Under the pieces are notes generated by a model. It was not told the origin of the DNA. It was given only the letters and a program-made list of their open reading frames with translations, and did no database searches. From an uncultured Ignavibacteria bacterium (lineage in GTDB: Bacteria; Zixibacteria; MSB-5A5; SM1-73): 64,000 nt of DNA. The stretch spans positions 649 through 64,648 of the forward strand of contig CAYGCR010000009.1 in NCBI GenBank assembly GCA_964348415.1, in the 5' to 3' direction. A program made the position numbers and the translations under genes. Of this stretch, positions 3,909 to 53,776 are shown piece after piece. Positions within the stretch are counted from its first letter, which is position 1, and each line of letters opens with the position of its first letter.

Positions 3909-4308
3909 ATTGAATCTTCAAATTCGTAGAGCTGTCGTGCCGGCCCACTGGATCAAGCGCCGGACTCGCATTTCCATCGGATCGGCAGAACATGTGACCT
4001 TCTTCTCTATGCCGGGTCCGATGAATCGGGCGTCTGGCCAAGACTCCAGGCCAAGCTGGCGACCCCGCCCAGGGATCCCAGCAGAGTCCCGGTGATACTG
4101 ATCCGGTTCAATATCTCCACACCAGCCGAAGGTGCCTCGGTTCTCCCCTGTGGGAGATATTCAGCAAGCTGTTGAATTATCCCCACACCTCTTGGCTATG
4201 GGTAGACCTCCCACTGGACCTAAAAGGAATTCCCAGCATGCTCTCAAGCCAAGCTAAGCCGTTAACCCTTTGATGGTTAGCGTTCTTCCCCGGCTGTGGC
4301 TGCCCGGT

Positions 4309-4324
4309 TGGCACAAAGGTTGCT
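4309..4324 (+). promoter_or_regulatory. sigma54 (RpoN) -24/-12 promoter element TGGCAC-N5-TTGC
   Basis: tTGGCACaaaggTTGCtg is a perfect match to the GG-N10-GC sigma54 consensus. About 385 nt upstream of the first pilin gene. A sigma54 EBP is encoded at 16868. Confidence 0.55.
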
Positions 4325-4708
4325 GTGGTTATAGACAAATTCCAGACAAAACTCGGCGCGAAAGGGGGGCCGGTTTCGCCGTAAACATTTCTTAAGGTTT
4401 AAGATAAACTAACCGATAAGTGTTAGGAACGAGAGTGATTGGGGGACGAGCGGATAAAGCCATATCCTGATCTGCTCGTCCGCAAACACTTGCGAGAAAC
4501 TGACGCGACCGCAAAAAGGGGGGAAACTCGCTTTCCTATTTGCCATTCAATCTCAAGCAGAAGCCATTGGAGATACAAGAGGAGTGTTGCTGCACTCCTC
4601 CGGATCGGCCCAGACACTCATCCCGTGTTTGGACTGACCTGAAGTTGCAAAGCAGGGGCATAAGGGAGCCGACTAACCTTAGAGCAGAACGAAAGGGGGT
4701 GAACAGGA

Positions 4709-5224
4709 ATGAAGGCAATGCGCAAGCTCTTTTCGAGCCAGGCCGGTTTTACCTTAGTCGAGCTGGCTATCGGACTGGTGATCATCGGTCTTTTGATCGG
4801 AGCCATTCTGGGAGGCGCCCAGATGATCAAGAACGCCAAGATCAAAAGGCAGGTGTCGGACCTCCGCGGTCTTTACGGAGCAGTATACACTTACTTCGAC
4901 AGATACCTGCAGCTGCCGGGCGACAATGACGCTGATGGTTATTTCGATGCCGACTCTGCGGTGTGGGCTGACATAGAGAACGATGAGTTAGCTTACGAGA
5001 ACAAGCGGAGTCCTTTTGGAGCCAAGTACTTTTTTGGTGCCGACACCTTAGGCACTCCGGTTGCCTACAGGAATGGAAACTACATCAGGGTCAGTTTGCC
5101 ACCGGATGTGGCGGAAAACGTCGATAAGCAGCTTGACGACGGGGTAGACAGCACCGGCTTTATCACAGCAGCTTCGCCTTACACCGGTACAGCGAAGATC
5201 AATGTCTATTACTTCGTGGACTAA
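4709..5224 (+). CDS. type IV pilin / pseudopilin (prepilin-type N-terminal cleavage/methylation domain)
   Basis: MKAMRKLFSSQAG|FTLVELAIGLVIIGLLIGAILGG is a classic G|FTLxE prepilin leader plus hydrophobic alpha1. RBS aaaggggg. Confidence 0.85.
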   Translation: MKAMRKLFSSQAGFTLVELAIGLVIIGLLIGAILGGAQMIKNAKIKRQVSDLRGLYGAVYTYFDRYLQLPGDNDADGYFDADSAVWADIENDELAYENKRSPFGAKYFFGADTLGTPVAYRNGNYIRVSLPPDVAENVDKQLDDGVDSTGFITAASPYTGTAKINVYYFVD

Positions 5225-5409
5225 GGGATAACAATCGGTGGGGAGGGGGGACTGGTGAAAACAGTCTCCCCTCCCCACCGAGTTCCCTTTTGCAGATCCT
5301 CCGATTTGTTTTCTCAGCAGGAGCAAGTTAGGATAACGCCGGTTAGGGTATCCTTCTCTGGAGATTCTGCTTGTGAGTTTTAGGGCACCGCTTTCACATA
5401 GAAGAATAG

Positions 5410-6261
5410 ATGAAACTCTCATTTTATCGGATGGATGAGAAAAGATCAGGCCAGGGATTCACCCTTCTGGAGTTGGCCATTACCATGGCCATAATTGGCC
5501 TGCTCATGGTTTCAGGGGTGGGCCTTTATGCCGCATTGGCCAAGAGGCAAAGGGAGGTTAAGACCAGGGAGGAAATGGAGGGCATCAGACAAGCGATTCT
5601 GGGCTACTATGAGAACTGCCTGGTGCTGCCATCTCCCGATTCCGGGTATCTTGTTCCCATTGAGGACCTTGAGCTTTCTCCCAACGCGCAGACCGACGAG
5701 CTCTATACCGGAAAATACTATGCTTATGTGACCACCAACGACGGATCGCCTTTTCCCGACCTGAAAGTGGACGGACAGTCCATAGGCAGTACGGCTATGG
5801 TTTTGATATCCAGCGGCACAAACTTGAAGTTCGACGAAAGTAATAACGACCTGACCGACGGCCAATACAGCCAGGACGGGACTACTGATGATTTCGATGA
5901 CATACTCCTGTATCTTTCAGCCAACGAACTGTCATCATCAACCGCCTGGAAAAGGGAGATAGAAGAGGAGGTGGCGGTTCTGAATAAGGCCGCAACAATC
6001 CTGGCTGAAAACGATGACGACGGAGACGGGTTCGTAGACGAGGATTCCACCGACGCGCCGGGCAATTCCGATAGCATGACCGACTGGAATTTGGTGACCG
6101 GAACACAGTCTCTGGTCAATGCAGGGCTTTTGTGGAATCCAGACCATCTGGTGGACCCGTGGGGCACCGAGTACTGCTGGAATTCGTTTGGTTATGAATT
6201 TTACTCTGCCGGTCCCAACAAAACCGATGAGGGCTGTGGCGGTGACGATATATGTCCTTAA
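5410..6261 (+). CDS. type IV pilin-like protein with acidic (Ca-binding-like) C-terminal region
   Basis: GQG|FTLLELAITMAIIGLLMVSG prepilin motif (alternative start ATG 5431). D/E-rich segments DDDGDGFVDEDSTDAPGNSDS. C-terminal Cys pair. Confidence 0.75.
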   Translation: MKLSFYRMDEKRSGQGFTLLELAITMAIIGLLMVSGVGLYAALAKRQREVKTREEMEGIRQAILGYYENCLVLPSPDSGYLVPIEDLELSPNAQTDELYTGKYYAYVTTNDGSPFPDLKVDGQSIGSTAMVLISSGTNLKFDESNNDLTDGQYSQDGTTDDFDDILLYLSANELSSSTAWKREIEEEVAVLNKAATILAENDDDGDGFVDEDSTDAPGNSDSMTDWNLVTGTQSLVNAGLLWNPDHLVDPWGTEYCWNSFGYEFYSAGPNKTDEGCGGDDICP

Positions 6262-6276
6262 GCGGAGCGGAAGCAA

Positions 6277-7665
6277 ATGATCCTGTGCGTGGACTTTGCA
6301 GGTCGAAAAGTCAACATAATGTGCTTGGAGAACAGAAAGGGGCCAGCCAGATCCTCCAAAGGCGGACGGAACCCCGAACTTCGGGTGACGGAATCGCTTG
6401 AACTTAACGTTTCCGATGCCCCAGACTATCTCCGAAGCAAATCCGGAATGATCGAGAGCACAAGGGTCTCGGCACCTTTAGAAAAAACGTTCCACAAGAT
6501 TCTCACTCTGCCCGATTTGAAGCCAAAGATGCTCAAATCGGCCGTCGAAGCGGAGGTGACAAAGGCCTTCGGAAACGAGTATCAATTTCGCTACCAAAAC
6601 CTTGGGGAGGTGCTCGGTCCAGGCAACCAGGTAAACAGAAAGATAATGGCCGCGGGAACGAACAAGGAGACCCTGGAAGAACTCTCACAGATTTTTTCCC
6701 GATCGCCAGTCAGACCCAGAATGTATACAACCTATCCTACCGCCGTGCGGGCGCTACTGAGGAAGCTGGGAATCCTGGGCGAAGAGCCCATAGCCTTTAT
6801 GGAGCTCAGTCGTCCGACAAACCGGATCGTCATCTTCAAAGGGAATGAGGTGCGACTAACCCGAGAGGTCAGCTCAGCGGAAGACGCTAAGGACCCTGGC
6901 CGCTCGGGCCTGGCAAAGGACGTTTTCCGGACCGTTCTTTTCTATAACGAGACCTACCCGGACGAGAGAGTGGGCAAACTTGTATTTGCGGGAAACTCCA
7001 ACACCTCGGAGATGCGGCACAGTTTAAGCCAGAAGATCGGAGCAGAGCTTATTCCCTTTGTGCCTGAGACCCTTCTCTGGGGAAGCGAACAGATGCACCA
7101 CCTCCATCCGGGATGTCTGGGGTTGGCTCTGCTGAACTCTGGTTCGCGCAGCTTTGGGTTCGTGCCCATCTCGGTGCAGGAAAAAAACAAGCTCAGAAAG
7201 ATATTGGTCTTATCCTCCTCCGTGTGCCTTGCCGTTCTTCTGACATTTGCCGTGATCATCTCTCGATTCTCTTTCGATCTGAGCAACCTGAATGCTTTTC
7301 ATGGGGGGATAAAGGGCGAAATCAAGATGAAAGAGGACAGGTTAAAGGAGATGCCACTGGAATTTATTGACCAAACCATAGAAAGCTCTCAGCCGCCCTG
7401 GTCTGACATTCTCCTGGAAGTGGCAGCGGTGGTGCCAGAGGGAGTGGCTCTTAAGACCTTCACCCTGAAAAACGCAAAAAGAATATGGCGAGGGGAAATC
7501 ACCGCCGTCGCAAATGGATCAGACGAGATTAACTCGCTGCTCCAAGTAGAAGAGACGCAAAATAATTTCGTGAAGTCACCCTTATTCAAAGGGGTTAGGT
7601 TGACCAACAGAGAATTACAGGGCAAGCAAGCCTCATTTAAGATAACCTATCAGTTGGATATCTAA
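6277..7665 (+). CDS. PilM-like actin-fold domain fused to a PilN-like TM/coiled-coil domain (MshI-like)
   Basis: N-terminal about 300 aa resemble PilM (ILCVDFAGRKVNIMCLE ... TLPDLKPKMLKSAVEAEVTKAFGNEYQFRYQNLGE). Single TM ILVLSSSVCLAVLLTFAVII, then a periplasmic domain. This matches the MshI architecture. Confidence 0.55.
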   Translation: MILCVDFAGRKVNIMCLENRKGPARSSKGGRNPELRVTESLELNVSDAPDYLRSKSGMIESTRVSAPLEKTFHKILTLPDLKPKMLKSAVEAEVTKAFGNEYQFRYQNLGEVLGPGNQVNRKIMAAGTNKETLEELSQIFSRSPVRPRMYTTYPTAVRALLRKLGILGEEPIAFMELSRPTNRIVIFKGNEVRLTREVSSAEDAKDPGRSGLAKDVFRTVLFYNETYPDERVGKLVFAGNSNTSEMRHSLSQKIGAELIPFVPETLLWGSEQMHHLHPGCLGLALLNSGSRSFGFVPISVQEKNKLRKILVLSSSVCLAVLLTFAVIISRFSFDLSNLNAFHGGIKGEIKMKEDRLKEMPLEFIDQTIESSQPPWSDILLEVAAVVPEGVALKTFTLKNAKRIWRGEITAVANGSDEINSLLQVEETQNNFVKSPLFKGVRLTNRELQGKQASFKITYQLDI

Positions 7666-7666
7666 G

Positions 7667-8203
7667 ATGGGCAGAGAAAAGATCATCATCATCGGTTTCG
7701 GTTGTCTGATTTTCTTGATTGCGTTCTTTGGGCTAAAAAGAATCAAATCACTTAACCGGCAGATCAGAGAACAGAAGGAAAACGTGGCCAAATCAAGCCA
7801 GCGGTTGGATTACGTCAAAAACCTGGGCGAGTCCTTGGAATTGAGAAGGATGAGCGGCAAGGTACTGTTCGAAATTCCTCGAGCACAGGATCCTATTGCA
7901 AACAAAATTCTGATGGAAAAGTTCATCAAGTCTCTCTTGTCGCGATTGGGGCTCGAGGCCGAGGTGAAAATCGAGAATGAACGCAAAAGCAGGGATTTCC
8001 CCGATGTGATCACGGTAAACGAGGTGCCTTTGAAGATCGGCATAAAGAATTACTCCTCCTATCACCAAGTGATAAAGATGTTAAAGGAATTCGGGAATTT
8101 GCCCTTTGTGGTGGAAATACTGACCATCGGGGGCACGGATGTGGCTGTCCCTGGTAATTTGAGGGTTCAGCTCAAATACTATGTCTTGCCCAGAGGCTCC
8201 TAA
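7667..8203 (+). CDS. PilO/MshJ-like pilus assembly protein (TM + coiled coil)
   Basis: N-terminal TM IIIIGFGCLIFLIAFFGL followed by a coiled-coil-rich periplasmic region. Position matches MshJ/PilO. Confidence 0.5.
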   Translation: MGREKIIIIGFGCLIFLIAFFGLKRIKSLNRQIREQKENVAKSSQRLDYVKNLGESLELRRMSGKVLFEIPRAQDPIANKILMEKFIKSLLSRLGLEAEVKIENERKSRDFPDVITVNEVPLKIGIKNYSSYHQVIKMLKEFGNLPFVVEILTIGGTDVAVPGNLRVQLKYYVLPRGS

Positions 8204-8204
8204 A

Positions 8205-8876
8205 ATGGAATTTCTTCAAAGCCCCAAATCCAAGAAGCTGGTCCTCCTGGGGGCGGGACTGGTGGTGGTGATTCTGGTCGGATTCTTCCTTTTGAAGTTC
8301 ATGACCTCAGGAGGAGCCGATGTGGTCCCGGAGAAACCCCGGTCCACCCAGCGGAGCGTAAAGAAGATCTCTAAACCTAAAGCGGAGGAGCCGAAGAAGT
8401 CTCCCCTTTATGAGGCTATGAAAGCCCTTAAGGATCCGTTCCGGGCTGAGGACCCCAGAGCTGCAGAATTGCAGGATAAGCTCAGCCTGACTCAAAAAGA
8501 AGTGGAATACTTAAGGGCAATCTTGGAGGAAAAAAAACTCCGGCACGAGATAAAGGTAATAGAGAGGTCCATAGCCGAAGCTGACCGGGCAAGCTCACCC
8601 TGCGAACAGGCAGCCGCGTCATCCTCCCAAGCAGGAAAAGCAGAGGCCAGCTCCAAAAAGCAACGGGTGCTGGTCAAGGCAATACTGATCACTGATGAAG
8701 AGAAAAGTGCTCTGTTGGTCTCCGGGAGCAAGAAGACTTGGGTTCACGAAGGAGAGAATTTCGACGGTTGGGACATAAAAGAGATCAGAAGGGAAAGTGT
8801 CGTCCTCTCCAAGGAGGGGAAGACAATCGTTTTCTTTTATGATCGTCCCGGCATTTTTCGGGAAGGAGAATCATGA
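8205..8876 (+). CDS. PilP/MshK-like pilus assembly protein
   Basis: TM LVLLGAGLVVVILVGFFLL, low-complexity linker, C-terminal beta domain VLVKAILITDEEKSALLVSGSKKTWVHEGENFDGWDIKEI typical of PilP. Start taken at ATG 8205, just after the upstream stop. Confidence 0.5.
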   Translation: MEFLQSPKSKKLVLLGAGLVVVILVGFFLLKFMTSGGADVVPEKPRSTQRSVKKISKPKAEEPKKSPLYEAMKALKDPFRAEDPRAAELQDKLSLTQKEVEYLRAILEEKKLRHEIKVIERSIAEADRASSPCEQAAASSSQAGKAEASSKKQRVLVKAILITDEEKSALLVSGSKKTWVHEGENFDGWDIKEIRRESVVLSKEGKTIVFFYDRPGIFREGES

Positions 8877-10342
8877 GAAGGTTCGGTTCCACCAGGGGGG
8901 TGCTTGCACTGCTTTCTGTATTGCTTTTTCTTTGCGGCTGCGCGTCAAATCTATCCCAGCAGGACGTGACCAAGGCCATATCGCAGACCGAAGAGGACCA
9001 CGACACTCCGCCGCCGCTGCCTCCCGAGTTAGGCCTGTCTCCCCTGCTCGATCTTCCGCCGGAGAAGGAAAAACTCTTTTCCTTCTCCGCCATAGAGGTC
9101 GCTCTGGAGGATGTGCTGCTTCCTTTATCAAAAGAGGCCGGGCTTAATATCATGTGGGATAAGGATGTTGATCCAAAGGCCCGCCTCAGCGTGAGTTTCG
9201 AAGATCTGACGCTGCTGGAAGCTTTAGAAGCCATATTTGCCCGGACCGAATACATGTATTGCATAAACAGTCCTACACTTCAGGTCAAACTTGTAGATAC
9301 CCGCACGTTTGAGTTAGGGCATGTTCCGACTAAGACCCAATCTCGGATGCAGGTGGGAGGGGACGTGCTGGGATCCATTCCCAATGTGGGAGGGGTGAGC
9401 GGTCAGTTCCAAATCACCGGGTCGACCGACGATGAGGCGCTTGATCTCTGGAAGCAGGTGAAGGAAGGGCTGGAGAACATAGTCTCACCAGAAGGGAAAT
9501 TCTTTGTAAACAAGCTTGCCGGAATGGTGACGGTGACCGACCGAAAGAGAAACCTTAAGCTGGCAGAAGAGTTTATCCAAAAGTTGAGAGCTACTTTGGA
9601 AAGACAGGTGCTGATTGAAGCCGAGGTAGTTGAAGTCACTCTGGAGCAAGCCCAAAGTTGGGGGGTGGATTGGTCGGCGATTCACTCCTTCTTGGTGGAT
9701 AACAAGACCATAGAACTGACAGGTACTCAGACGTTAGGCCTGCCTGGCTCCGTGGTAGAATTGACCGCCTCCCGGCATGATGCTGCCGTTATTCTGGACA
9801 TCCTGGGTCAGTTCGGTGAGGTTCACGTGCTGTCCAAACCCAGAATCAACGTGATGAACGGTCAGACTGCAATGATCAACGTGGGGCGGGTGATAAGCTA
9901 CTGGGAGTTGACCGGACTTTCCGCCGGAGCAGAGGTGGGGCAGCCAATTGTCTTTCCCGAGCAGAAGACGGTGCTTCTGGGCCTGACCATGGGCGTGACC
10001 CCTTATATCTCAGCAGACGGTTACGTTACCCTGCAGGTGGTTCCAATTGTGAGCGATGCCAGCACCTTCTCCGAGTTTCAATTTGAGAGTCAAATGCTCA
10101 AAGCTCCCAACATAGACATCCGCGAGACCAGCACTCAGGTGCGGATAAAAAATGGCGAGACCGTGGTAATCGGCGGTCTTATCACCTCCAGGAAAACGGA
10201 CACAGAACACAAAGTGCCCTTGCTGGGCGATCTCCCCCTGTTGGGCTACTTCTTTAAGCGAAAGGAAAAGACCGAGCAAAGAGCAGAGCTGGTGATCCTT
10301 CTAACTCCCCGAATTGCACGGATGGACAGAGAGGAAGGCTGA
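8873..10342 (+). CDS. type IV pilus / type II secretion secretin (PilQ/MshL/GspD family), lipoprotein
   Basis: Lipobox LLFLCGCASN. Secretin domain VLSKPRINVMNGQTAMINVG ... and C-terminal signature VPLLGDLPLLGYFFKRKEKTEQRAELVILLTPRI. Confidence 0.85.
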   Translation: MRRFGSTRGVLALLSVLLFLCGCASNLSQQDVTKAISQTEEDHDTPPPLPPELGLSPLLDLPPEKEKLFSFSAIEVALEDVLLPLSKEAGLNIMWDKDVDPKARLSVSFEDLTLLEALEAIFARTEYMYCINSPTLQVKLVDTRTFELGHVPTKTQSRMQVGGDVLGSIPNVGGVSGQFQITGSTDDEALDLWKQVKEGLENIVSPEGKFFVNKLAGMVTVTDRKRNLKLAEEFIQKLRATLERQVLIEAEVVEVTLEQAQSWGVDWSAIHSFLVDNKTIELTGTQTLGLPGSVVELTASRHDAAVILDILGQFGEVHVLSKPRINVMNGQTAMINVGRVISYWELTGLSAGAEVGQPIVFPEQKTVLLGLTMGVTPYISADGYVTLQVVPIVSDASTFSEFQFESQMLKAPNIDIRETSTQVRIKNGETVVIGGLITSRKTDTEHKVPLLGDLPLLGYFFKRKEKTEQRAELVILLTPRIARMDREEG

Positions 10343-10343
10343 A

Positions 10344-11312
10344 ATGAGATTGATATTCAAGTCCTCCAGAGACAAAGACGACGTGATTCAATTGCCTTCC
10401 GACCGCAGAGTGGTGTCTTCATTCCCGGACCGGGAAGGAAGGCGGTCTCTTTTGCGGGTTGACCTTCCGGACTCCTATAAGGACTTCTTCAAGTTCAAAG
10501 AATCGCCCTTCTGCATTACGCCTGACCCGAAGTTCTTCTTCTTTTCCCGTTCGGCATCTGAAGGGTTAAACCATCTGCGTTATGGCATCTACGAGGGGTT
10601 GGGGTTCACCATGATAACCGGGGAGCCCGGAACGGGCAAGACCGTCCTTTCGCGATACTTCTCCAGCAAGGCAGGAGACGATTTGCAGATAACGCGAATA
10701 TCCGATCCCCATCTGTCCAACAAAGAGCTTCGGCTGGCAGTTCTCGAAAACCTCGGTGGATCAAGATACCTGCAGGAGGATCTGAGTGAAAGACAATTGA
10801 CCCGACTGCTTCACGACCTTCTTATCTGGGCCAACCGCCAGTCAAAGAGGGTAGTCATATTCTTGGACGAGGCCCAGGGGCTGGGCTTCGAGTTGTTAGA
10901 GGGCCTAAGGCTTCTTTCCAATCTGGAAACGGAGAGCAAGAAACTGACTCAGATTGTTCTTTTCGGTCAGACCGAGTTAGAGGAGATGCTGCGGGAGAAA
11001 AGACTGAGACAGCTTGATCAGCGTATCCTGGTAAGGTATCGTCTGCTTCCGCTGGAGCCAGATGAGATCCAGCCTTATATCCAACATCAACTTGCCGTAG
11101 CCAAGGCGGACAGGTACGTGGAGTTTGCCGACGAAGCAGTCACCAAAATCTACCAGATCTCCAGAGGATTGCCCCGGATGGTGAATGTTCTTTGCGAGCG
11201 TGCCATGATGTCAACCTTCGTTCAGAATAGCAGGAAGATCACGGTACAGAGTGTATTGGAGGGTTGGGAAAGTTTGAATGGGATAGGGATACTGGAAGCA
11301 AGAAATTTTTAA
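10344..11312 (+). CDS. ExeA/GspA/MshM-like AAA+ ATPase
   Basis: Walker A ITGEPGTGKTVLSRYF and Walker B VIFLDEAQ (AAA_22/ExeA family). ATG 10344 with RBS gaggaagg. Adjacent to the secretin as in msh/exeAB systems. Confidence 0.7.
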   Translation: MRLIFKSSRDKDDVIQLPSDRRVVSSFPDREGRRSLLRVDLPDSYKDFFKFKESPFCITPDPKFFFFSRSASEGLNHLRYGIYEGLGFTMITGEPGTGKTVLSRYFSSKAGDDLQITRISDPHLSNKELRLAVLENLGGSRYLQEDLSERQLTRLLHDLLIWANRQSKRVVIFLDEAQGLGFELLEGLRLLSNLETESKKLTQIVLFGQTELEEMLREKRLRQLDQRILVRYRLLPLEPDEIQPYIQHQLAVAKADRYVEFADEAVTKIYQISRGLPRMVNVLCERAMMSTFVQNSRKITVQSVLEGWESLNGIGILEARNF

Positions 11313-11346
11313 GGAGGAACGGACAGCAGCCATTCAGGGGGCAAAG

Positions 11347-12687
11347 GTGGGGCTAATAACAAAAGCCATAGACAAGGTGGACAAGGATCAAAGTCCACCT
11401 GCTCAGGAAGAGACGGCATCTCCACCCAAAAGAAAACGCAAAATTCTGCTGGCAGCTGTGACGCTCCTTTTGGCTGGCACGTGTTTGGGTTTGGGCTATC
11501 TGTTCTTACTTCAACGGACGGCGGAGGTTCCGCCCAGGGTCGCCCGTCGCTCCATGAGCGTCAAAAAGAGCCCGCCGAAGCGCGCGCCAAAACAGGCCGA
11601 GGTGAAGGGGACCGCAGGCCTGAAAGGCCGGGAGATGATAGAGGAGAAGACTGCTTCTGAAGAGACACCGAAGGAAACACTTCCCCAAAAGCACCCAGAC
11701 AAAGAGAGTGCTACAGCCGGAAAGGAGATGAAGCCAGCAGCGCCTGAGGAGGAATCGTCCGGCCGGACCGCTCTCGACCGGACTTCGGGGGTGCAGAGTG
11801 TGCCGGAACCTACGAAATCGTCGATTGAAATCATCCAAGAAGAGCCAGAGCAAGAGCCGGAGATTGCAGAATCCCCGGTTGACAAGCTTGAGGAACCAGA
11901 GGACCCCTCAGCTGCGGAAAAAGAGGAAAACATCCCCGCAGGTGTCGCAGCATCGGACGACATAGAGGAGACTCCCGGCGAGCTGTCTGGTAAAGCGGTT
12001 CCCGCCCTCCCCGAGCAAATCCCTTCGGAAGAAGTGTCTCCGTCATATCTCGAAGAACCAGAAAGGGAGTGGACGCAGAAGCAGCTGGCTGTAACCGAAA
12101 GATCTGACTCCAGAGCGAAAAGATACTACAAGAAGGGAGTATCTTATCACCAACAGGGAGAACTCAATCGAGCTATCGATTCATACAGGGAGGCACTGGT
12201 TTGTGATCCCGATCATCTGCCGGCTCACAAGAATCTGGCTACAGCTTACCTGCAGACAGGTAGGTTTTGGGAAGCCGAGCAGGAGTTGGTCTATCTCTAC
12301 GCGTTAAGGCCAAGGGATCCCAGGACACTTTTCAACTTCGGATTGCTTCTATACCGGATCGGTGAGCACGTTTCGGCTGAGATTAAGCTGAGAAGGCTTT
12401 TGGAGTTGGAGCCCCTTCACTTGGAGGCTAACCTTCTTCTGGGCAGCATCTATGAGAAAAAAGGAGACACAGACCAAGCGCTTGAGTTTTGCATAAGAGC
12501 CTATCAGATCAATTCGGCCGATCCGCGTGTCCTTTATCGGTTAGGAAGAGCCTGGGACATGGCGGGCGAACCGGCAAAGGCGGTAAAATACTACCAGTTA
12601 TTTATCAAAACTCATTCGCCCAAGGAAGACGAACTGGAACCAGCGGTGCGTGATAGATTGAAGTATCTGATCAACAGAAAGGAGTAG
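11347..12687 (+). CDS. membrane-anchored TPR-repeat protein (MshN-like)
   Basis: GTG start. TM LLAAVTLLLAGTCLGLGYLFLL, acidic low-complexity linker, C-terminal TPR repeats (YYKKGVSYHQQGELNRAIDSYREAL...). Position between the ExeA-like and MshE-like genes as in msh operons. Confidence 0.55.
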   Translation: MGLITKAIDKVDKDQSPPAQEETASPPKRKRKILLAAVTLLLAGTCLGLGYLFLLQRTAEVPPRVARRSMSVKKSPPKRAPKQAEVKGTAGLKGREMIEEKTASEETPKETLPQKHPDKESATAGKEMKPAAPEEESSGRTALDRTSGVQSVPEPTKSSIEIIQEEPEQEPEIAESPVDKLEEPEDPSAAEKEENIPAGVAASDDIEETPGELSGKAVPALPEQIPSEEVSPSYLEEPEREWTQKQLAVTERSDSRAKRYYKKGVSYHQQGELNRAIDSYREALVCDPDHLPAHKNLATAYLQTGRFWEAEQELVYLYALRPRDPRTLFNFGLLLYRIGEHVSAEIKLRRLLELEPLHLEANLLLGSIYEKKGDTDQALEFCIRAYQINSADPRVLYRLGRAWDMAGEPAKAVKYYQLFIKTHSPKEDELEPAVRDRLKYLINRKE

Positions 12688-12689
12688 AG

Positions 12690-14333
12690 ATGCCTGAGTC
12701 ATTGGGAGATATGCTACTGGAGAGCGGGAGAATAACCAAGAGCCAGTTTGAATTGGCCCAGATAGAGAAGAACCGCACCGGTGCCAAGTTTGGGGAGATA
12801 TTGGAGAGGCTGGGCTTTGTAAGTCACGAAGAAGTGCTTGAGCTGGTGGGGCAGCAGTGGGAAGCGCCTTACCTGGACTTCTCCCACACGCCGGTGGATC
12901 CCGAAGTAGTCAAGCTGATCCCGGAAGAGATTGCCAGATCGTCAAAGCTGATACCGGTGGAGATAAAAGAGGGGGGTATATTGACGGTTGCCATGGCTAA
13001 TCCCAATGATATCAACGCAATAGACCGGCTGGGGGAGCTCACCAAGCTGACCATTGAGCCCAGAATAGCTGATGAGGATACCATCTTAAGCTACATAGAT
13101 GAGCTCTATGGGATGACCATTTCCCCGGAGAAGGTATTGGAAGAGAGCTTGAACCAAGCATTGAGCCTGGACCAAGTGGAAGAGGAGACTCCTCCTTTGA
13201 TCAGACTGGTCGACTCCTTGATTGCTCGGGGGATAAAGGAAAGGGCCACGGACATTCACGTAGAGGTCGACGAAAGCGTGGGGCGTGTGCGGTACAGGAT
13301 AGACGGCGTGCTTCAGACCGCCTTTATCCTCTCCAAGAAAATCTATCGCCCCGTGGTAAGCAGGATAAAGATCATGGCGAGTCTGGACATAACCGAGAGC
13401 AGGATCCCGCAGGATGGAAGTCTCCGCTTCACCTACAATACTCAGGAGATCGATGTCCGGGTATCCACCATGCCCGTCTTTTACGGTGAGAGCGTGGTCC
13501 TGAGGATACTGCAGAAGCCCAAGTTTCTCATGAGCTTAGCCGACCTCGGCTACTGGGGTGAGAATCTGGAGAGGTTCAAGAAACTGGTGCAGAAGCCCTA
13601 CGGCATGATTGTGATCACCGGTCCCACCGGCTCAGGTAAGTCCACCACTCTTTACGCAGCGCTCACCACCATGAACAGCTTGGAGAAGAACGTAATCACG
13701 CTGGAAGATCCGGTGGAGTATCAGCTTCCCATGAGCAAGCAGTCTCCCATTCACGAGAAGGCGGGGTATACCTTTGCCAAAGGACTGCGCTCCATCCTCC
13801 GTCACGACCCGGATATAATTCTCCTGGGAGAGATGAGGGATGAGGAGACCGCGGAGATGGCGTTTCGAGCATCCATGACCGGTCATTTGGTCTTCACCAC
13901 GCTGCACGCCAATAGCGCGGCTGCCGCTGTGGCGCGCCTTCTGGATATGAATGTGGAGCCTTTTGTGGTATCCACCTCCTTGCTGGCGGTAATAGCTCAG
14001 CGACTGGCTCGAAGGATTTGCGTCAAGTGCAAGGAAAGTTATGCCCCGTCTGACGAGGAGCTCAACTGTTATCCGCAGCTTAGAGGCAGGAAAGACATCA
14101 CTCTCTATCGGGGGAAGGGGTGCGAAAGATGCAAGCATACCGGCTATCGGGGAAGAATAGGAATATTTGAGGTGCTGGAAGCAAACGAAGAGATAAATCA
14201 ACTGATCCTTAACAAAGTCCTTTCCTCCGAGCTGGAAAAGGCCGCCAACATGAAGAGCATGTTAGATGACGGAATAGAGAAGGTATTGAAAGGGATAACC
14301 ACTTTGGACGAAATTCGAAGGGTCATCGGATAA
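12690..14333 (+). CDS. type IV pilus assembly ATPase (GspE/PilB/MshE family) with N-terminal c-di-GMP-binding MshEN-type motifs
   Basis: Walker A GPTGSGKST. Asp/His boxes. Tetra-Cys Zn motif CVKCKE...CERCKH. The N-terminus carries two tandem 24-aa motifs (LGDMLLESGRITKSQFELAQ / KFGEILERLGFVSHEEVLELVGQQ) matching the MshEN c-di-GMP-binding consensus. Confidence 0.9.
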   Translation: MPESLGDMLLESGRITKSQFELAQIEKNRTGAKFGEILERLGFVSHEEVLELVGQQWEAPYLDFSHTPVDPEVVKLIPEEIARSSKLIPVEIKEGGILTVAMANPNDINAIDRLGELTKLTIEPRIADEDTILSYIDELYGMTISPEKVLEESLNQALSLDQVEEETPPLIRLVDSLIARGIKERATDIHVEVDESVGRVRYRIDGVLQTAFILSKKIYRPVVSRIKIMASLDITESRIPQDGSLRFTYNTQEIDVRVSTMPVFYGESVVLRILQKPKFLMSLADLGYWGENLERFKKLVQKPYGMIVITGPTGSGKSTTLYAALTTMNSLEKNVITLEDPVEYQLPMSKQSPIHEKAGYTFAKGLRSILRHDPDIILLGEMRDEETAEMAFRASMTGHLVFTTLHANSAAAAVARLLDMNVEPFVVSTSLLAVIAQRLARRICVKCKESYAPSDEELNCYPQLRGRKDITLYRGKGCERCKHTGYRGRIGIFEVLEANEEINQLILNKVLSSELEKAANMKSMLDDGIEKVLKGITTLDEIRRVIG

Positions 14334-15532
14334 TGCCCCAGTACAGCTATCAGGCAGTAGACAGCAAGAACAAACGGGTAAGGGGTGTTCTTCCCGCCTC
14401 AGGTCTGGAGGATGCAGAAGCTCAACTGCGGGAGATGGGCCTCTACCCCATCTCGGTGCAGACCAAGGCCGTGCGCCAGAGTCGTGGCTTCGGGTCCCGA
14501 AGGATCAACACAAAAGACGTCCTCTCCTTCACCATTCAGCTCCATCTGATGTTTACTGCAGGGCTGCCTCTTTTAAAAGCTCTGGAGAACATTGCTGAAC
14601 AGGAGAAAAACCCCGCATTCCAGGAAGTGATCACAGACGTGTGTAAGAAGATAGAAACCACAGGTAGTTTCTCTGAAGCCATTGCCGCTCACCCCAAGGT
14701 ATTTCCTCCCTTTTATCTGGGGGCAATAAGAGCGGGCGAATCCGGAGGTACTCTTCCCGAGATCCTGGAAGAGCTGGCCGGCTCTCTGGAAAAGCAGGAT
14801 GAACTGCAGGCGGAACTCAAACAGGCTTTGATGTATCCTGTCATGATCATGTGCGTGATGTCGGCGGTCACGGGCTTTTATGCCTTTTATCTAATGCCCA
14901 AGATGATGCAATTGGTCGAGGAACTGGGGGCCCCCATTCCCTTTTATACCAGAGCCATACAGTTTATCATCAACAGCATTATGGGCCTGTGGTTGCCCAT
15001 TATAGTTCTCTTCATCCTGGGGATCGTCGGCTTCCTCGCGTACCGAAAGACCGAAGGTGGAGCTTACACCTTAAGCTACCTGAAGATGAAGTTTCCTCTC
15101 TTTGGGTTGGTTATTCAGAAGAGCGTTCTGTGTACCTTCTCCCATTATCTGTCACTTCTGCTCCGCTCCGGCTTTGGGCTGCTTCCCTCTCTGGATCTGG
15201 TCAAGGGAACCATCGGAAATAAGAGTATTGTGAGATCTATAGAGATCATTGAAGAAAGGATTAAACGAGGTGAGTCCTTTGCTGACTCCATGAAGGGTCT
15301 GCCATTCCCCGGCTTCATGATCACCATGATTGCACTGGGGGAACAGACCGGCAAGGTGGCAGAACAGCTGGCCATGATTAACGCATACTTCGAGAAAGAC
15401 GTGCAGAGAACCACCAAGAAGGTGCTAACGGTGATGGAACCCCTGATCCTGGTCACATTCGGCGGAATTTCGGCTGTAATACTCCTCTCCACATTCTTCC
15501 CACTTTATAATGCCATGGGGCAGGTGAAATAA
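14333..15532 (+). CDS. type IV pilus / T2SS inner-membrane platform protein (GspF/PilC/MshG family)
   Basis: Two T2SSF repeats, 3 TM segments, ATGA overlap with the upstream ATPase gene. Confidence 0.9.
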   Translation: MPQYSYQAVDSKNKRVRGVLPASGLEDAEAQLREMGLYPISVQTKAVRQSRGFGSRRINTKDVLSFTIQLHLMFTAGLPLLKALENIAEQEKNPAFQEVITDVCKKIETTGSFSEAIAAHPKVFPPFYLGAIRAGESGGTLPEILEELAGSLEKQDELQAELKQALMYPVMIMCVMSAVTGFYAFYLMPKMMQLVEELGAPIPFYTRAIQFIINSIMGLWLPIIVLFILGIVGFLAYRKTEGGAYTLSYLKMKFPLFGLVIQKSVLCTFSHYLSLLLRSGFGLLPSLDLVKGTIGNKSIVRSIEIIEERIKRGESFADSMKGLPFPGFMITMIALGEQTGKVAEQLAMINAYFEKDVQRTTKKVLTVMEPLILVTFGGISAVILLSTFFPLYNAMGQVK

Positions 15533-16663: not shown

Positions 16664-16867
16664 TGCATGAGAACCAATTATATATTACGTCACAAACTTC
16701 TTCAAGTCAACATTTTTTTCTGTAAGGTATTTCGGAGGAGAACCACCACTTCCTTGCTTGCCCTTCAGTTTTGTTGTAGAAAAATTTTTTCGGATTTACA
16801 TCCTTTTGTTATCAACGCAAACAGATTTTAGTTGACAAATCCTGAGTTGAAATTCATATTGAAAAAT

Positions 16868-36314: not shown

Positions 36315-36884
36315 ATGAACGGAGCCATGTTCAACAGTCTGGCTCGCTTCATCGATAAGAATTATCCCCAGGTTTCCTTCACCGATCTTTGTCAGAAGGC
36401 AGCTTTGAAAACCAATATCTTCGCTGAATTAACCTGGTATCCAGATAAAGATTTTTCAAACCTCGTGCAGGCTTTAAGCGACCAGACAGACATACAGGTC
36501 TCTGCACTCTGGAGAGAGTTGGGAAGAGAAACTTTCACCTACTTTGCTGACATCTTCGGCGACTATATGAACCAGGTCAAAAGCTTTCCCGATATGATCA
36601 CAGCAGTAAACAGGATTCACCATGACATAAAGCACGATGGGCTGGGAACTCCTACCCGTCTGGAATTCAGAAAAGCCTCGCAGGACCAGTTTGAAATCAG
36701 ATACTCCTCAGATAGAAGTTTCAACGATTTCTTCTTGGGAATGTTAGAGGGCGCCGCCAGGCATTTTCAATCGGAGGTGAAGATCCTCGGAAGAAAGGAA
36801 AGAGGAAAACTCATCGTTACCATCAAGCTCAAAGAACCTGAGATGGCGATAGTCAAGCTAAGGGCATCCAGTCTTGTTCGATAA
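36315..36884 (+). CDS. stand-alone H-NOX (haem nitric oxide/oxygen binding) domain protein
   Basis: Aligns along its length with Tt H-NOX: MNGAMFNSL..., proximal His in NRIHHD, Y-x-S-x-R haem-propionate motif in EIRYSSDRS, and GMLEGAARHFQSE ~ GLIEGSSKFFKEE. Distal-pocket Tyr replaced by Phe (FNDFFLG). Confidence 0.8.
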   Translation: MNGAMFNSLARFIDKNYPQVSFTDLCQKAALKTNIFAELTWYPDKDFSNLVQALSDQTDIQVSALWRELGRETFTYFADIFGDYMNQVKSFPDMITAVNRIHHDIKHDGLGTPTRLEFRKASQDQFEIRYSSDRSFNDFFLGMLEGAARHFQSEVKILGRKERGKLIVTIKLKEPEMAIVKLRASSLVR

Positions 36885-38622: not shown

Positions 38623-40176
38623 TCAGTCGCAAGGCGGTGAGCCTCCTCTAAACAAGTAGCTTATTACATAGACCACATCACCGGATTGAACTACACCGTC
38701 ACAGTTAGCGTCCCCAGCCTGCAAGATCGGGAGCGGCGGGGTCCCACCTCTGAACAAATAGCTTATCAGATAGACCACATCTCCAGCCTCAACGGCCCCG
38801 CTTTGATTGACATCTCCGCGCCAGAATTGAGCATATCTAATGGTGGTACAATCCTTCACAGTCAAGATCCCATCACTGAACCCGTTGACGTACACATTGC
38901 CAACGCTGTCCACTGCCAGGTCACGCCCGCCGTCAAAGCCAGCAACCGGTCCACCGTATGGTCCATCGTATCTTTCCACCCAGACCTCGTTACCTGAAGG
39001 ATCGTACTTGATGGTGGCGTAGTCGGGGTCTCCTTCTGTGCCAGGAGTTTGCCCGGTGACATAGACGTTTCCGGAATCATCTACTGCCAAAGCAAAAGCG
39101 CAATCGAAGGCACCCTCTACACCGTACAGCCTTACCCAAAGCTCATCACCCGAGGCATCATAAACTATGGTGCCATAGTCCTTGCAGTCGTATCACCCGC
39201 CCTCCATGTGGCTGGCCCCTGTCACATAAACTCGGCCCTCATGATCCACGGCTATGGCTTTGGGTACATCCGGCCCGTCTCCAGGACCGTTGTACCTTCT
39301 TACCCAGGCGGTGTCACCATTCGGATAGTACTTTATCGTGACGTAGTCGTCGTCTGAATCAGTGCTGTAACTTGTCCCGGTTACGTAGACATTGCCGGAA
39401 GCGTCCACAGCGACGGCTCTACCCGCATCCGCTCCGTTTCCCGGACCGTTGTACCTGCCCACCCAGGCGGTATCTCCGTCAGGATAGTACTTTATGGTTG
39501 CGCAGTCCGTGGCTGTCTCACTGGCGTAACTTTCTCCGGTTACGTAAGCAAAACCGAAATCATCTATGGCCAAGGCGTGAGCGCAATCAAGTTGATTTCC
39601 GGGTCCGTCGTAAGTCCTCAGCCAGGCTGTATCGCCGTTTGGATAGTACTTTATGAGGACATAGTCCTCATTTGTTTCCTCGTCGAGACTTTGTCCAGTG
39701 ACATATGCATTGCCGGAAGCGTCCAGCTCTACGGCCGTGGCAAAATCCTCGCCGTTGCCAGATCCATTATGCCGCCATACCCAGACCTCGCTGCCGGAAG
39801 AATCATACTTTATGGTGGCAATGTCTGAGTCCGTCCCCACTCCAAAGCTCCATCCGGTCACGTAAACGTTACCCGAGCCATCCACAGCTATGTCCTCAGT
39901 CACGTCATTCGAGCCGGCCGGTCCGTCGTAGCTTCCAACCCATTTAGCAATTCCATCTTTCGAGTACTTTATGGTAAGATAGTCGGTCGTGATGATATCA
40001 GAGACGTAACTGTTACCTGCAACGTAGAGATAGCCGGAAGCATCTAAAGCTAAGGCACCGCCTTCGACGATTGCCGGTCCGGCGTATCTCCTCACCCAGG
40101 CGGTATCGACGGACTGGGCAGCGGCAGACGCGCTAGCCAAAAGCAAAATCGCCAATATACAGAACTTTCTGGTCAT
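38623..40176 (-). CDS. secreted SBBP beta-propeller-repeat protein with C-terminal double dockerin-like module, containing an in-frame TGA (39193-39195). Candidate selenoprotein or disrupted gene.
   Basis: Signal peptide MTRKFCILAILLLASASAAAQ. About 8 repeats SGNVYVTG.S....DY.TIKY..G...W. The reading frame continues uninterrupted through TGA (…VTGASHMEGG-TGA-YDCKDYGTIVYDASG…) into ORF 38623-39090, which ends with two dockerin-like Ca loops (GDVNQSGAVEAGD / GDANCDGVVQSGD). Confidence 0.55.
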
Positions 40177-40197
40177 ACTCCGACTCCTACCTTAGGT

Positions 40198-40530
40198 TTA
40201 GGGGTTAGCCTTGCTCTCATGTGGCTTCTGGCAGAACTGTTTCGTCTCCTTGTATTTGCCGATGAACTCCTGATGTGACATGAACCCGTAATAGGTCTCC
40301 GGTTTGTCCGGCTCAAGTTCGTAAGCTTTATGAAGTACAGAGACGTCCTTCACGCCGTAGTGATTCCAGAATCTGAGAGGGTAGTACTCATAAGTGCCGG
40401 GGCTTCTCCGGCTTGCCGTCTAGGGACTGACTGCGCACGCGTAATCGAAGCACAGGAGCAGGAAAAAGAATATCCACAGTGCGTGGTGAAATCGTCTGGT
40501 GATTCTGATCCTCCTCATCTTGAGATTCAT
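40198..40530 (-). pseudogene. small secreted protein ORF interrupted by an in-frame TAG (40420-40422)
   Basis: Strong RBS aaggagg-ATG. MNLKMRRIRITRRFHHALWIFFFLLLCFDYACAVSP-TAG-TASRRSPGTYEYYPLRFWNHYGVKDVSVLHKAYELEPDKPETYYGFMSHQEFIGKYKETKQFCQKPHESKANP*. Signal-peptide-like N-terminus. Not in the ORF track because of the amber codon. Confidence 0.3.
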
Positions 40531-40843
40531 GCCTCCTTTGGCAGTGGCATCTCACCCTTTAATACGCACCACGTTCAGATGGGTTCAGAGTTTTTTCCAG
40601 AAGCCGGCTTCAGCCAACAGCGTCGGATAGGCCTTGCGACCATATCCGACCTAACTTTCTAACGAGAGCCACTGCGCAAGCCGATTTCCACAATATCATT
40701 TACAATGGCCTCACTTGCAGAAGGTCGGTGTTGGCACTTTGTTTCTGCAAACTCGTACTTATCCTTTGTGACTCTAATTGGCTGCCTCTTTCCCGCTACC
40801 ATGATGTGCGACTTGCTTTTATCTAGTGTTATCTGCAATGATA

Positions 40844-40865
40844 GGGGCGGGATGAATTCCCGCCC
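40844..40865. repeat. palindromic hairpin repeat GGGGCGGG-ATGAATTC-CCGCCC (copy 2)
   Basis: Identical core to copy 1. Located 3' of the 40977-42815 gene on the minus strand. Confidence 0.6.
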
Positions 40866-40976
40866 TTATCAGATCCACGATTTACTTGTTGGGGTCGCAC
40901 TCATGCGGCCGGTGGGCCTCCGTCCTTCGACAGGCTCAGGATGGTCAGTTTAAGGTCAGACTCATCTGCCTGAAGC

Positions 40977-42815: not shown

Positions 42816-43096
42816 GCGGCGACTCCGTTTTGAAGGTGAGGAGCAGAATAGATGTCTTCTCTTGTATGAAGGTGTTCCACCACTACTATAACTCAAAAAT
42901 CCGAAAAATCAAGAAAAATCTTTCCCTGCGAACGCATACCTTGTCCCCTTCCCAGATCGCAGGTGTTAGGCAACAGTGACACGTTGACTCACAGTGTGCA
43001 TTGGGCCTTTCCTTAGTGCTCCCCATCAAGCGGATGAGAACAGATCAGTAGTAGGGGTCGCATTTATGTGACCCGCGGGTTCTATGAATTGAACCC

Positions 43097-53285: not shown

Positions 53286-53776
53286 GGGGAGTAGTTCGGT
53301 TGAAGCTGACCAATATCGCCTCCGTCGGTGAGAAGCTACCGGGGCTCTCTTTCTGTGCTTGATTTGTTAGAATCATATGCTTGGTACGAAATCACCCGTT
53401 CTAATCTTAGATCAGATTGCACCCTCAGAGATCCGATCGGGACATGTTTGCCGGAAGTTCTTCTGCTGCAGATGAGAGAGAACTGCGTTTTGGCTGATCG
53501 GGTCCGTAGAATTTACAGCTATTGCCCACGCCTTTCTGGAAGCTTAATCAGATTTGATTCGACTTTATCGTCTCATCAGTCGTATTTAGATGTTAGCCTC
53601 TGAGGCCTTGACCACCGAGAGCGTGGATCATGTCAAAAGAGCAGAAAATTGTTGACAAAAGTGGACATTGTATTAAATTAAAATTAGGCTAAACTGATAA
53701 GGTAAGTCGGGTTTAGCTTTTTTGTTGGGCTGTTTTGCTCCGGTCATCAATTGTGATCCTTCTCAGGAGGTTTTCC

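Follow-up and report, generated by a model that had tools for sequence, protein, structure and literature searches.

In Vibrio cholerae, the mannose-sensitive hemagglutinin (MSHA) pilus is encoded by the mshIJKLMNEG secretory operon together with mshBACDOPQ and is a member of the MSH class of type IV filaments. Systems of this class are composed of a PilM/N-type protein, two small bitopic proteins, a secretin, an ExeA-like AAA ATPase, a tetratricopeptide repeat (TPR) protein, an ATPase and a platform protein, are encoded at a single locus, and have no prepilin peptidase in that locus (Denise et al. 2019, PMC6668835). The same survey reported MSH systems in Gammaproteobacteria, Epsilonproteobacteria, and Chrysiogenetes. 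Type IVa pilus (T4aP) systems are usually spread over several loci (PMC6668835). Here, a ten-gene locus is described from a 64-kb stretch of DNA (64,000 nucleotides of contig CAYGCR010000009.1, referred to as the window) assigned to the candidate phylum Zixibacteria. We consider this region to be one operon for a type IV filament machine of the MSH architectural type, with a probability of roughly 0.65.

The locus is composed of ten co-directional, mostly overlapping open reading frames (ORFs) on the + strand between 4709 and 15532, all at the coordinates given by a first-pass annotation made from the sequence alone. They encode two prepilins, a PilM-PilN fusion, a PilO-sized protein, a PilP/GspC-like protein, a secretin, an ExeA-like AAA ATPase, a TPR protein, an ATPase of the GspE/PilB family, and a platform protein. 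From the second pilin gene to the platform gene, the ORFs overlap or abut (7665/7667, 8181-8203, 8873-8876, 10314-10342, 12687/12690, and 14333) and are therefore translationally coupled as one operon. An identical ten-gene order was found in ~30 Zixibacteria loci, at 33-93% identity, when species-representative genomes and metagenomes were scanned. Since the flanking genes vary from locus to locus, the unit is the ten genes. Homologs of the PilM-PilN fusion are found almost exclusively in Zixibacteria metagenome-assembled genomes (MAGs), and its distant relatives are annotated just as "PilN domain-containing protein." When the window was compared to 12 complete loci, mean identity was highest for the major pilin (81.5%), the ATPase (81.1%), and the platform protein (78.7%), followed by the second pilin (72.6%), the secretin (71.3%), the PilO-position protein (70.3%), the AAA ATPase (65.2%), the PilP-like protein (57.6%), and the PilM-PilN fusion (55.4%), and lowest for the TPR protein (43.9%).

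This layout, from the PilM/N-type protein and two small bitopic proteins through the secretin, AAA ATPase, and TPR protein to the ATPase and platform protein, is that of the MSH class, and the MSHA gene order proposed in the first-pass annotation was borne out. Equivalog models were compared at the NCBIfam curated cutoffs, and the MSH component types were judged by generic family models, not by MSH-specific orthology. The ATPase matches T2SSE (420 bits) and MshEN (70 bits) and the platform protein matches T2SSF (171.5 bits, in two stretches), generic models that identify the component type only. The pair in the MshM and MshN positions consists of an AAA_22 protein (80 bits) followed by the TPR protein; the best named model for the former, TIGR03015, scored below its cutoff. 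The ten contiguous genes occupy a single locus without a prepilin peptidase, and the best model for the secretin is MshL. Profiles from Pfam and NCBIfam also agree with the ten gene labels proposed earlier, with matches to N_methyl, Secretin, AAA_22, TPR, T2SSE, MshEN, and T2SSF and a PilN match at E 4e-4; the PilO and PilP labels have weaker support. The locus had also been called complete. This is too strong, as the window lacks a prepilin peptidase, a retraction ATPase, and a minor-pilin set beyond one second pilin. Neither the locus nor the rest of the 64-kb window has a prepilin peptidase gene (Peptidase_A24), and the DNA flanking related loci has none either.

The alignment module begins with the 462-aa PilM-PilN fusion (6277-7665, + strand), which has an MshI/GspL-type architecture. 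Its Pfam PilN match is sub-threshold and covers residues 378-459. The AlphaFold2 model, based on 36 homologs with a predicted local distance difference test (pLDDT) score of 80.7, has an actin-like N-terminal cytoplasmic domain, a ~60-residue transmembrane/coiled helix (298-357), and a C-terminal periplasmic ferredoxin-like alpha/beta domain. A Foldseek search of the PDB with this model returned Pseudomonas aeruginosa PilM (5eou, E 3e-15) and other P. aeruginosa and Thermus PilM structures (E 3e-15 to 3e-13) ahead of FtsA and GspL (4pht_X, E 1.6e-7). The predicted structure confirms the protein as a PilM-PilN fusion. The following gene (7667-8203, + strand) encodes a 178-aa protein in the position of PilO, GspM, and MshJ that is composed of an N-terminal transmembrane helix, a coiled coil, and a C-terminal domain. 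A profile of its orthologs found nothing significant in Pfam or the PDB, and the PilO label rests only on position, size, architecture, and a weak T2SSM match (E 0.0076). The PilP/GspC-HR-like protein in the MshK position (8181-8876, + strand) likely starts at 8205, as judged from ortholog alignments. It matches the TIGR03021 pilP_fam model (E 1.1e-6, 29.7 bits) under the cutoff of 34.65, and GspC TIGR01713 (E 5.7e-6, 26.1 bits) under the cutoff of 101.6. A profile search of the PDB and Pfam found weak matches to the GspC homology region (HR) in the PDB, none of them significant.

The 489-aa secretin (8873-10342, + strand; Pfam Secretin 148 bits) carries the sequence LFLCGC, a probable lipoprotein signal. 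Its best NCBIfam model is MshL TIGR02519 at 227.4 bits (E 1.8e-67), under the equivalog cutoff of 250.2. The scores against GspD (163, cutoff 351) and PilQ (156.6, cutoff 284.35) are lower. A tblastn search against plasmids matched solely secretins, at <=27% identity and with mixed annotation. The ExeA/MshM-like AAA ATPase (10314-11312, + strand) likely starts at 10344 according to ortholog alignments. It possesses a Walker A motif (GEPGTGKT) and a Walker B motif (VVIFLDEAQ), and scored 223 bits against the related model TIGR03015 (cutoff 324.5). The protein in the MshN position (11347-12687, + strand) is membrane-anchored, with a long acidic/proline-rich linker and TPR repeats at the C-terminus, and matches TPR_1 (76.8 bits) and many further TPR models. 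In loci L018 and L023, ~1.4 kb more DNA than in the window separates the AAA gene from the part of the TPR gene that matched, which suggests that the TPR protein of this clade has a much longer N-terminal region. The last gene (14333-15532, + strand) encodes the inner-membrane platform protein (GspF/PilC/MshG), which scored 268 bits against GspF TIGR02120 (cutoff 424) and 252 bits against PilC (cutoff 700).

The 171-aa major prepilin (4709-5224, + strand; N_methyl 26.3 bits) has the leader peptide MKAMRKLFSSQAG, cleaved after a glycine and before FTLVE, and the mature protein is 158 aa without Cys. Its AlphaFold2 model (pLDDT 82.4) has a pilin fold that is closest to Clostridioides difficile PilA1 (E 4e-4), then to TcpA and CofA; GspG is not among the structure matches of the model. 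When a profile of the pilin orthologs was compared to PDB sequences, the N-terminal helix alone matched, and V. cholerae MshA (9lab_B) was found weakly (E 0.48). An acidic loop near the C-terminus of the major pilin, VDKQLDDGVDSTG, is conserved and resembles a metal-binding site. A role as an e-pilin was considered and rejected. Aromatic residues make up 13.3% of the protein, but it has a 41-residue aromatic-free gap and none near positions 24 and 27; the criteria are those of a preprint (bioRxiv 10.1101/668343). The 283-aa second prepilin (5410-6261, + strand; N_methyl 26.4 bits) has an acidic insert and a GspG-like C-terminus, DPWGTEY...GPNKTDEGCGGDDI, with a T2SSG match at residues 237-278 (E 0.0092). 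Against GspG TIGR01710 (cutoff 88.85), the second pilin scored 31.3 bits and the major pilin 22.6 bits.

Some lineages carry extra polytopic membrane proteins within the locus (L001/L022, L011, and also L009 and L032). In the complete genome CP070839.1 (L001/L022, 7598-8981), the place of the major pilin gene, ahead of the second pilin, is taken by a gene for a TMEM260-like protein O-mannosyltransferase (173 bits). In L011 (12664-13836), a 390-aa EpsG-like protein (sub-threshold) is encoded between the PilP-like gene and the secretin. These extra genes are hints of pilin glycosylation.

MshEN domains bind cyclic di-GMP (c-di-GMP) through two 24-residue motifs that are 5 residues apart (Wang et al. 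2016, PMC5013675). They are found in V. cholerae MshE, in Thermus PilF (GSPII-B/C), and in PilB of Myxococcus and Chloracidobacterium. The 547-aa extension ATPase of the window (12690-14333, + strand) is a member of the GspE/PilB/MshE family. Its scores against PilB (525.3 bits, cutoff 675.65) and GspE (523.7 bits, cutoff 630) are nearly tied and both below cutoff, and its catalytic half has intact Walker A, Walker B, and tetracysteine motifs. As in the described MshEN domains, a 53-residue region (residues 4-56, DNA 12699-12857) has the 24-5-24 layout, with motifs at residues 4-27 and 33-56 separated by five residues, and this four-helix region is followed by a T2SSE_N subdomain. The NCBIfam model NF053729 ("cyclic di-GMP-binding domain, MshE-related"; cutoff 38) is passed at 40.8 bits with the full protein and 43.5 bits with the N-terminal 160 aa, and is matched by 16 of 18 orthologs at E<=1e-9. 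The N-domain aligns to V. cholerae MshE (5HTL, E 3.5e-16), and its alignments to PilB of Geobacter and Myxococcus and to Thermus PilF are just as good. The MshEN motif is therefore no discriminator between MSHA and ordinary T4aP motors.

The first-pass annotation had quoted two N-terminal strings of the ATPase as repeats fitting the MshEN consensus. Both strings are in the protein and the 24-5-24 layout held, but a fit to the consensus is too strong a claim, since careful alignment fails both a strict and a relaxed pattern. The strict consensus is two copies of RLGxx(L/V/I)(L/V/I)xxG(L/V/I)(L/V/I)xxxxLxxxLxxQ, 5 residues apart. Motif I (S-L-G-xx-L-L-xx-G-R-I-xxxx-F-xxx-Q-xx-K) matches it at 6 of 11 key positions, and motif II (K-F-G-xx-L-E-xx-G-F-V-xxxx-V-xxx-V-xx-Q) at 5 of 11 exactly and 10 of 11 conservatively. 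The relaxed pattern, [RKPN]hGxxhhxx[GAS]hhxxxxhxxxhxx[QNKRYWST] (PMC5013675), fails at S4, R14, and Q24 in motif I and at E39 in motif II. Every ortholog has T/S-L-G in motif I and K-F-G in motif II, so that T/S and K replace both arginines.

Binding of c-di-GMP by this N-domain is plausible at roughly even odds. The competing reading, which we rate a little lower, is that the domain is a degenerate MshEN fold in which binding is lost or weak, and that assembly is then not gated by c-di-GMP. The substitutions are phylum-wide: Ser/Thr for Arg9, Arg for a hydrophobic residue at position 11, Gln for Leu29, and Lys for Gln32 in motif I, and Glu at position 7 in motif II. In V. cholerae MshEN, single Leu substitutions cut affinity >10-fold (PMC5013675), and Thermus PilF GSPII-A, which has one degenerate motif, does not bind (PMC11731258). 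The NF053729 margin is just ~3 bits, and the 64-kb window holds no GGDEF or EAL gene. Against degeneration, the curated model is passed by the window protein and matched by most orthologs, and the spacing and both Gly-containing turns are intact. The Arg at position 1 is dispensable in Thermus PilF GSPII-B, which binds c-di-GMP at 6 nM without either arginine (PMC11731258). The domain's mean identity of 81% argues for retained function.

The next question is how the pilin genes are transcribed. A sigma54-type -24/-12 element, TGGCACAAAGGTTGC, lies at 4309-4323 (+ strand) and matches TGGCAC-N5-TTGC exactly. The element noted in the first-pass annotation is thus present and conserved, in 13 loci, though its end is 4323 and not 4324. 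It is the sole exact match on both strands of the 64-kb window, where 0.14 are expected by chance. At least one match was found in 13 of 100 shuffles, so chance alone could give a match, and the element is credible because it is conserved across loci. In the 13 Zixibacteria loci, GGCA(C/T)-N5-TTGC is found 245-484 nt upstream of the pilin start, with GG, TTGC, and the spacing invariant while the flanks vary.

When the upstream DNA of these loci was aligned, all 13 also had an imperfect palindrome, TGTGGGAG-N3-TTCA...TGAA-N3-TCCCCACA, at 4149-4187 in the window and centered ~142 bp upstream of the -24 GG. Its 3' arm is TCCCACA, and its inner arms co-vary between loci (ATTCA/TGAAT, ATCCAA/TTGGAT, and ATCAA/TTGAT). 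Because its position and form fit an enhancer-binding-protein site, the palindrome is likely to be the upstream activator sequence for a sigma54 enhancer-binding protein, and it is treated here as a candidate for one. An additional TCCCAC half-site is present at 4209-4214.

Of the elements upstream of the pilin gene, the one conserved most widely is the block TTTCTTAAGG-N14-ACCGATAAG (4388-4420, + strand; consensus CTAAAG-N15-CCGAT(A/T)A). Whether or not a locus carries the sigma54 element, the block can be found there, as in the L025, L043, and L108 groups; it may act as another promoter used across the phylum, as an operator, or as an RNA element. From these comparisons, the sigma54 module is real but clade-specific and need not be the main promoter. 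It is possible, and somewhat short of an even bet, that the pilin is transcribed mainly from the CTAAAG-N15-CCGATAA block and that the sigma54 element with its palindrome is a clade-specific accessory promoter or drives the leader only. Essentially every Zixibacteria group has the block ahead of the pilin gene, even the sigma54-less L015, L019, L025, L041, L042, L043, and L108; L041 and L042 retain the whole leader without the sigma54 element and palindrome. Where the sigma54 element exists, the block follows it at a fixed distance of ~95-115 nt. Speaking against a promoter, the block does not resemble the sigma70 consensus, a scan of 4300-4700 for sigma70 consensus promoters found nothing, and an RNA element or operator would explain the conservation equally well.

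The sigma54 reading also had a candidate activator. A sigma54 enhancer-binding protein is encoded at 16832/16868-18718 (+ strand), as the first-pass annotation had it, and is composed of a GAF domain (GAF_3 52.3 bits), a sigma54-interaction domain with the GAFTGA motif (Sigma54_activat 246.8 bits), and a C-terminal helix-turn-helix. An organism that encodes such a protein can be taken to have sigma54. The window holds no second activator of this kind and no canonical sigma54 site other than the pilin promoter. The link that had been proposed between the two is weak. The activator adjoins the locus in just three lineages, and its closest locus-adjacent orthologs, in L041 (79%, upstream, with the same tRNA-Ser neighbor) and L020 (61%, divergent, upstream), belong to loci with no sigma54 element upstream of the pilin. 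A dedicated role is weakened accordingly, and we regard this protein as a doubtful candidate for the cognate regulator of the pilin operon. Elsewhere, L109 has a PilS/PilR-like kinase and response-regulator activator 3.5 kb from the locus. In L053, a distant pilin relative, an activator gene is followed by a perfect TGGCACAGAAGTTGC (9869-9883) 133 nt upstream of the pilin. From these two cases, sigma54 control of this pilin family recurs.

Several observations weigh against the main reading of the locus, from the MSH assignment to its regulation. All family-specific equivalog models (MshL, PilB, GspE, GspD, GspF, and PilQ) fall below their curated cutoffs, and the platform protein scores slightly better against GspF than against PilC. 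The locus has two pilin-like genes, and the V. cholerae MSHA locus has seven. At its C-terminus the second pilin resembles GspG, and the major pilin matches the ATPase in conservation, which is unusual for an exposed pilus subunit. Genes for rpoN, pilD, pilT, and diguanylate cyclases are absent from the 64-kb window. The sigma54 element and palindrome are both missing in other Zixibacteria clades (L015/L016, L019/L023, L020, L025-27, L041/L042, and L108), which keep the CTAAAG block, possibly as the main promoter. In the ATPase, the MshEN motifs depart from both forms of the consensus, strict and relaxed, at positions important in V. cholerae, with Gln at the Leu29 equivalent and Ser/Thr at the Arg9 equivalent. 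The resemblance to V. cholerae MSHA consists of the gene order, the single locus without prepilin peptidase, the secretin best matched by MshL, and the alignment of the ATPase N-domain to MshE. The Zixibacteria locus differs in having its two pilin genes upstream, not downstream, in having no MshH or MshF equivalents, in an MshL score below the equivalog cutoff, and in MshEN motifs without both Arg and the Leu29 equivalent. It also differs in its host, a phylum of the FCB (Fibrobacteres, Chlorobi, and Bacteroidetes) group, in its sigma54 promoter with an upstream palindrome, and in an unusually conserved major pilin. On balance, a system that is MSH-like by architecture is favored, and formal membership in the MSH class is unproven.

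Many of the same points are expected if the locus encodes a secretion (pseudopilus) system with few pseudopilins rather than an adhesive surface pilus. The described example is the atypical type II secretion system (T2SS) "Pul" of Geobacter and Pelobacter, with PulG/OxpG (Mehta et al. 2006, in PMC3543383); Geobacter Pul systems have 2-3 pseudopilins and secrete OmpB (PMC3543383). The likeness to Pul lies in the 2-3 pilin-like genes and the GspG-like pilin features. Both Zixibacteria pilins have GspG as their best named match, far below cutoff, and the second pilin ends in the GspG-like DPWG...DG..G..DDI. The platform protein is best matched by GspF, the PilO-position protein matches T2SSM only, and a major subunit as conserved as the ATPase would be expected of a non-exposed pseudopilin. 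There are two pilin genes only and no retraction ATPase in the window, and some homologs are publicly named "pseudopilin PulG" or "type II secretion system protein." Cell-division genes adjoin the locus in at least one Zixibacteria genome (ftsQ/murC next to L001), another point in common with Pul. Distant relatives of the pilin are also found in secretin-ATPase-platform-ExeA clusters without PilMNOP (L096).

We nevertheless consider a secretion system the less likely of the two. Each T2SS equivalog is below its cutoff, most of them far below (GspD, GspE, GspF, GspG, and GspC, with the scores given above), so that assignment of the genes to a T2SS by profile fails, and no GspH-K-like gene or PDZ-type GspC was found in the locus. 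The fusion matches PilM far better than GspL, the model of the major pilin matches type IV pilins and not GspG, and the secretin is best matched by MshL. The strong hairpin behind the pilin gene is consistent with a subunit made in very large amounts. Compared to Pul, the Zixibacteria locus has a full PilM/N-O-P-type alignment module and no evident secreted substrate adjacent to it; this is a comparison of organization.

The distant pilin relatives (30-46% identity) occur in differently ordered clusters (L053, L096 1-12000, L074, L085, and L086) that lack PilMNOP. These clusters hold a secretin, an ATPase, a platform protein, an ExeA-like AAA protein with an SH3 domain, a TPR protein, and a lytic transglycosylase.

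The region between the sigma54 element and the pilin ATG is a leader of ~385 nt (4336-4708) with conserved blocks, a two-helix hairpin, and G-runs resembling the pilin ribosome-binding site. The hairpin (4430-4494, + strand) is an inverted repeat with an outer helix, CGAGAGUG/CACUUGCG, and an inner helix, GGACGAGC/GCUCGUCC. In 13 loci, RNAalifold recovered this two-helix element; compensatory changes are few, and the loop varies, with a 17-nt insertion in L033. The stretch 4336-4711 folds more stably than 100 of 100 shuffles (z = -3.03). Covariation in the hairpin was considered, and the compensatory changes in 13 sequences are too few to call an RNA structure. A small conserved ORF in the leader was also rejected, as its ATG is not conserved and its frame shifts with G-run length. 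The leader had no Rfam match even at E<=10 and is therefore no known riboswitch; a search of the whole window at the gathering threshold found three tRNAs and one chance match to a long non-coding RNA.

Immediately after the pilin stop, the window has a GC-rich stem-loop with a 20-bp stem and a T-rich tail (5235-5281, + strand), which is the top-ranked terminator-like site. A strong hairpin is found right after the pilin stop in 23 of 23 loci examined; the sequence differs and the pairing is preserved. This hairpin likely causes partial termination/attenuation or stabilizes the 3' end of the mRNA, which would give an excess of pilin mRNA with read-through. Together, the leader and the post-pilin stem-loop fit a locus that makes much pilin while some transcription continues into the assembly genes.

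In C. difficile, the pilA1 leader carries a c-di-GMP-II riboswitch. The Zixibacteria leader resembles it in being a long structured 5' leader before a major type IV pilin gene, and differs in having no Rfam match, thin covariation, and no evidence implying a ligand. A more far-reaching interpretation of the locus gives this leader a central role. The system would be a separate phylum-wide filament lineage whose major subunit is under unusually strong purifying selection and whose expression is set by a new cis-regulatory RNA, riboswitch-like or protein-binding, downstream of a sigma54/activator module. The putative RNA would be the conserved 250-400-nt leader, composed of the CTAAAG-N15-CCGATAAG block and the GGGAGUGU...CCGCGG...CCGCGG...GCACUUCC hairpin. 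We consider this interpretation improbable.

The type IVa pili of Pseudomonas, Myxococcus, and Geobacter, in which pilA is sigma54/PilR-dependent, share individual features with the locus. These are the PilM fold, the PilN and PilP domains, the secretin, the PilB-like ATPase with an MshEN-type N-domain, the PilC-like platform, the sigma54-dependent major pilin promoter with an upstream activator site, and the hairpin after the pilin gene. The Zixibacteria locus differs in its fused PilM-PilN, its extra AAA and TPR genes, its organization as one operon, its T4aP equivalog scores below cutoff (PilB, PilQ, and PilC), and its nearby activator, which has a GAF input and is not part of a PilS/PilR pair; a PilR-like pair is near the locus in L109. 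That the region is a canonical T4aP locus (PilMNOPQ and PilBC) that is contiguous by chance is highly improbable: PilB is the top equivalog match of the ATPase (525 bits), PilP and PilN models match weakly, and PilM is the best structural match, but pilM and pilN are not separate genes, the secretin and ATPase genes are separated by those for an ExeA-like AAA ATPase and a TPR protein, PilQ gives the secretin 157 bits (cutoff 284) and MshL 227, no PilT, PilD, or minor-pilin operon is nearby, and such systems are usually scattered (PMC6668835).

In an MSH-like system, homology suggests the following order of events. The 171-aa and 283-aa prepilins would be cleaved by a prepilin peptidase encoded elsewhere. 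The pilins would then be polymerized at the inner membrane by the platform protein and a hexameric GspE/PilB-family ATPase, which is held by the PilM-PilN fusion with the PilO-position and PilP-like proteins. The filament would exit via the probable lipoprotein secretin, with the ExeA-like AAA ATPase and the TPR protein aiding secretin insertion. It may be a surface pilus or a short secretion pseudopilus. In the clade with the sigma54 element, sequence comparison indicates that transcription can start at 4309-4323, served by an activator on the palindrome at 4149-4187, and the neighboring GAF activator may be this cognate regulator. The MshEN domain of the ATPase may couple filament extension to c-di-GMP.

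Further observations concern the records and the rest of the window. An exact-protein lookup did not find the window ATPase on record. Among the public MAG records with a Zixibacteria-type locus, several bear the title "uncultured Ignavibacteria bacterium" or "Terriglobales bacterium" (L004, L008, L010-L013, L015, L025, and L109), and these titles are either wrong labels or signs of mixed bins. In the 21-kb loci L014 and L021, the PilM-PilN fusion gene is the sole match and its neighbors are unmatched, which may be due to masked sequence or a rearranged locus. H-NOX (haem-NO-binding) sensors often control c-di-GMP enzymes. The window encodes a stand-alone H-NOX protein (36315-36884, 95 bits) with no c-di-GMP enzyme adjacent. 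At 38623-42896 and 51051-55999, the window encodes SBBP beta-propeller proteins and M1 peptidases with dockerin and He_PIG Ig-like domains, which are probably secreted or on the surface.

The locus brings no change to the general understanding of type IV filament systems. Beyond routine annotation, it offers a new palindrome, a phylum-wide promoter-proximal block with a structured leader, a post-pilin hairpin, and strong conservation of the major subunit. The regulatory layout, with its sigma54 promoter and defined palindrome, long conserved leader, and pilin-proximal hairpin, could be examined with nothing more than DNA, RNA, and purified protein. In the MshEN motif, degeneration across the phylum amounts to a natural experiment on the consensus positions that c-di-GMP binding requires. 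An MSH-like operon across an uncultured FCB-group phylum would widen the range given by Denise et al. 2019 (PMC6668835). For the Zixibacteria, which are abundant sediment bacteria with no cultured member, the locus provides a concrete candidate for an appendage or a secretion route.

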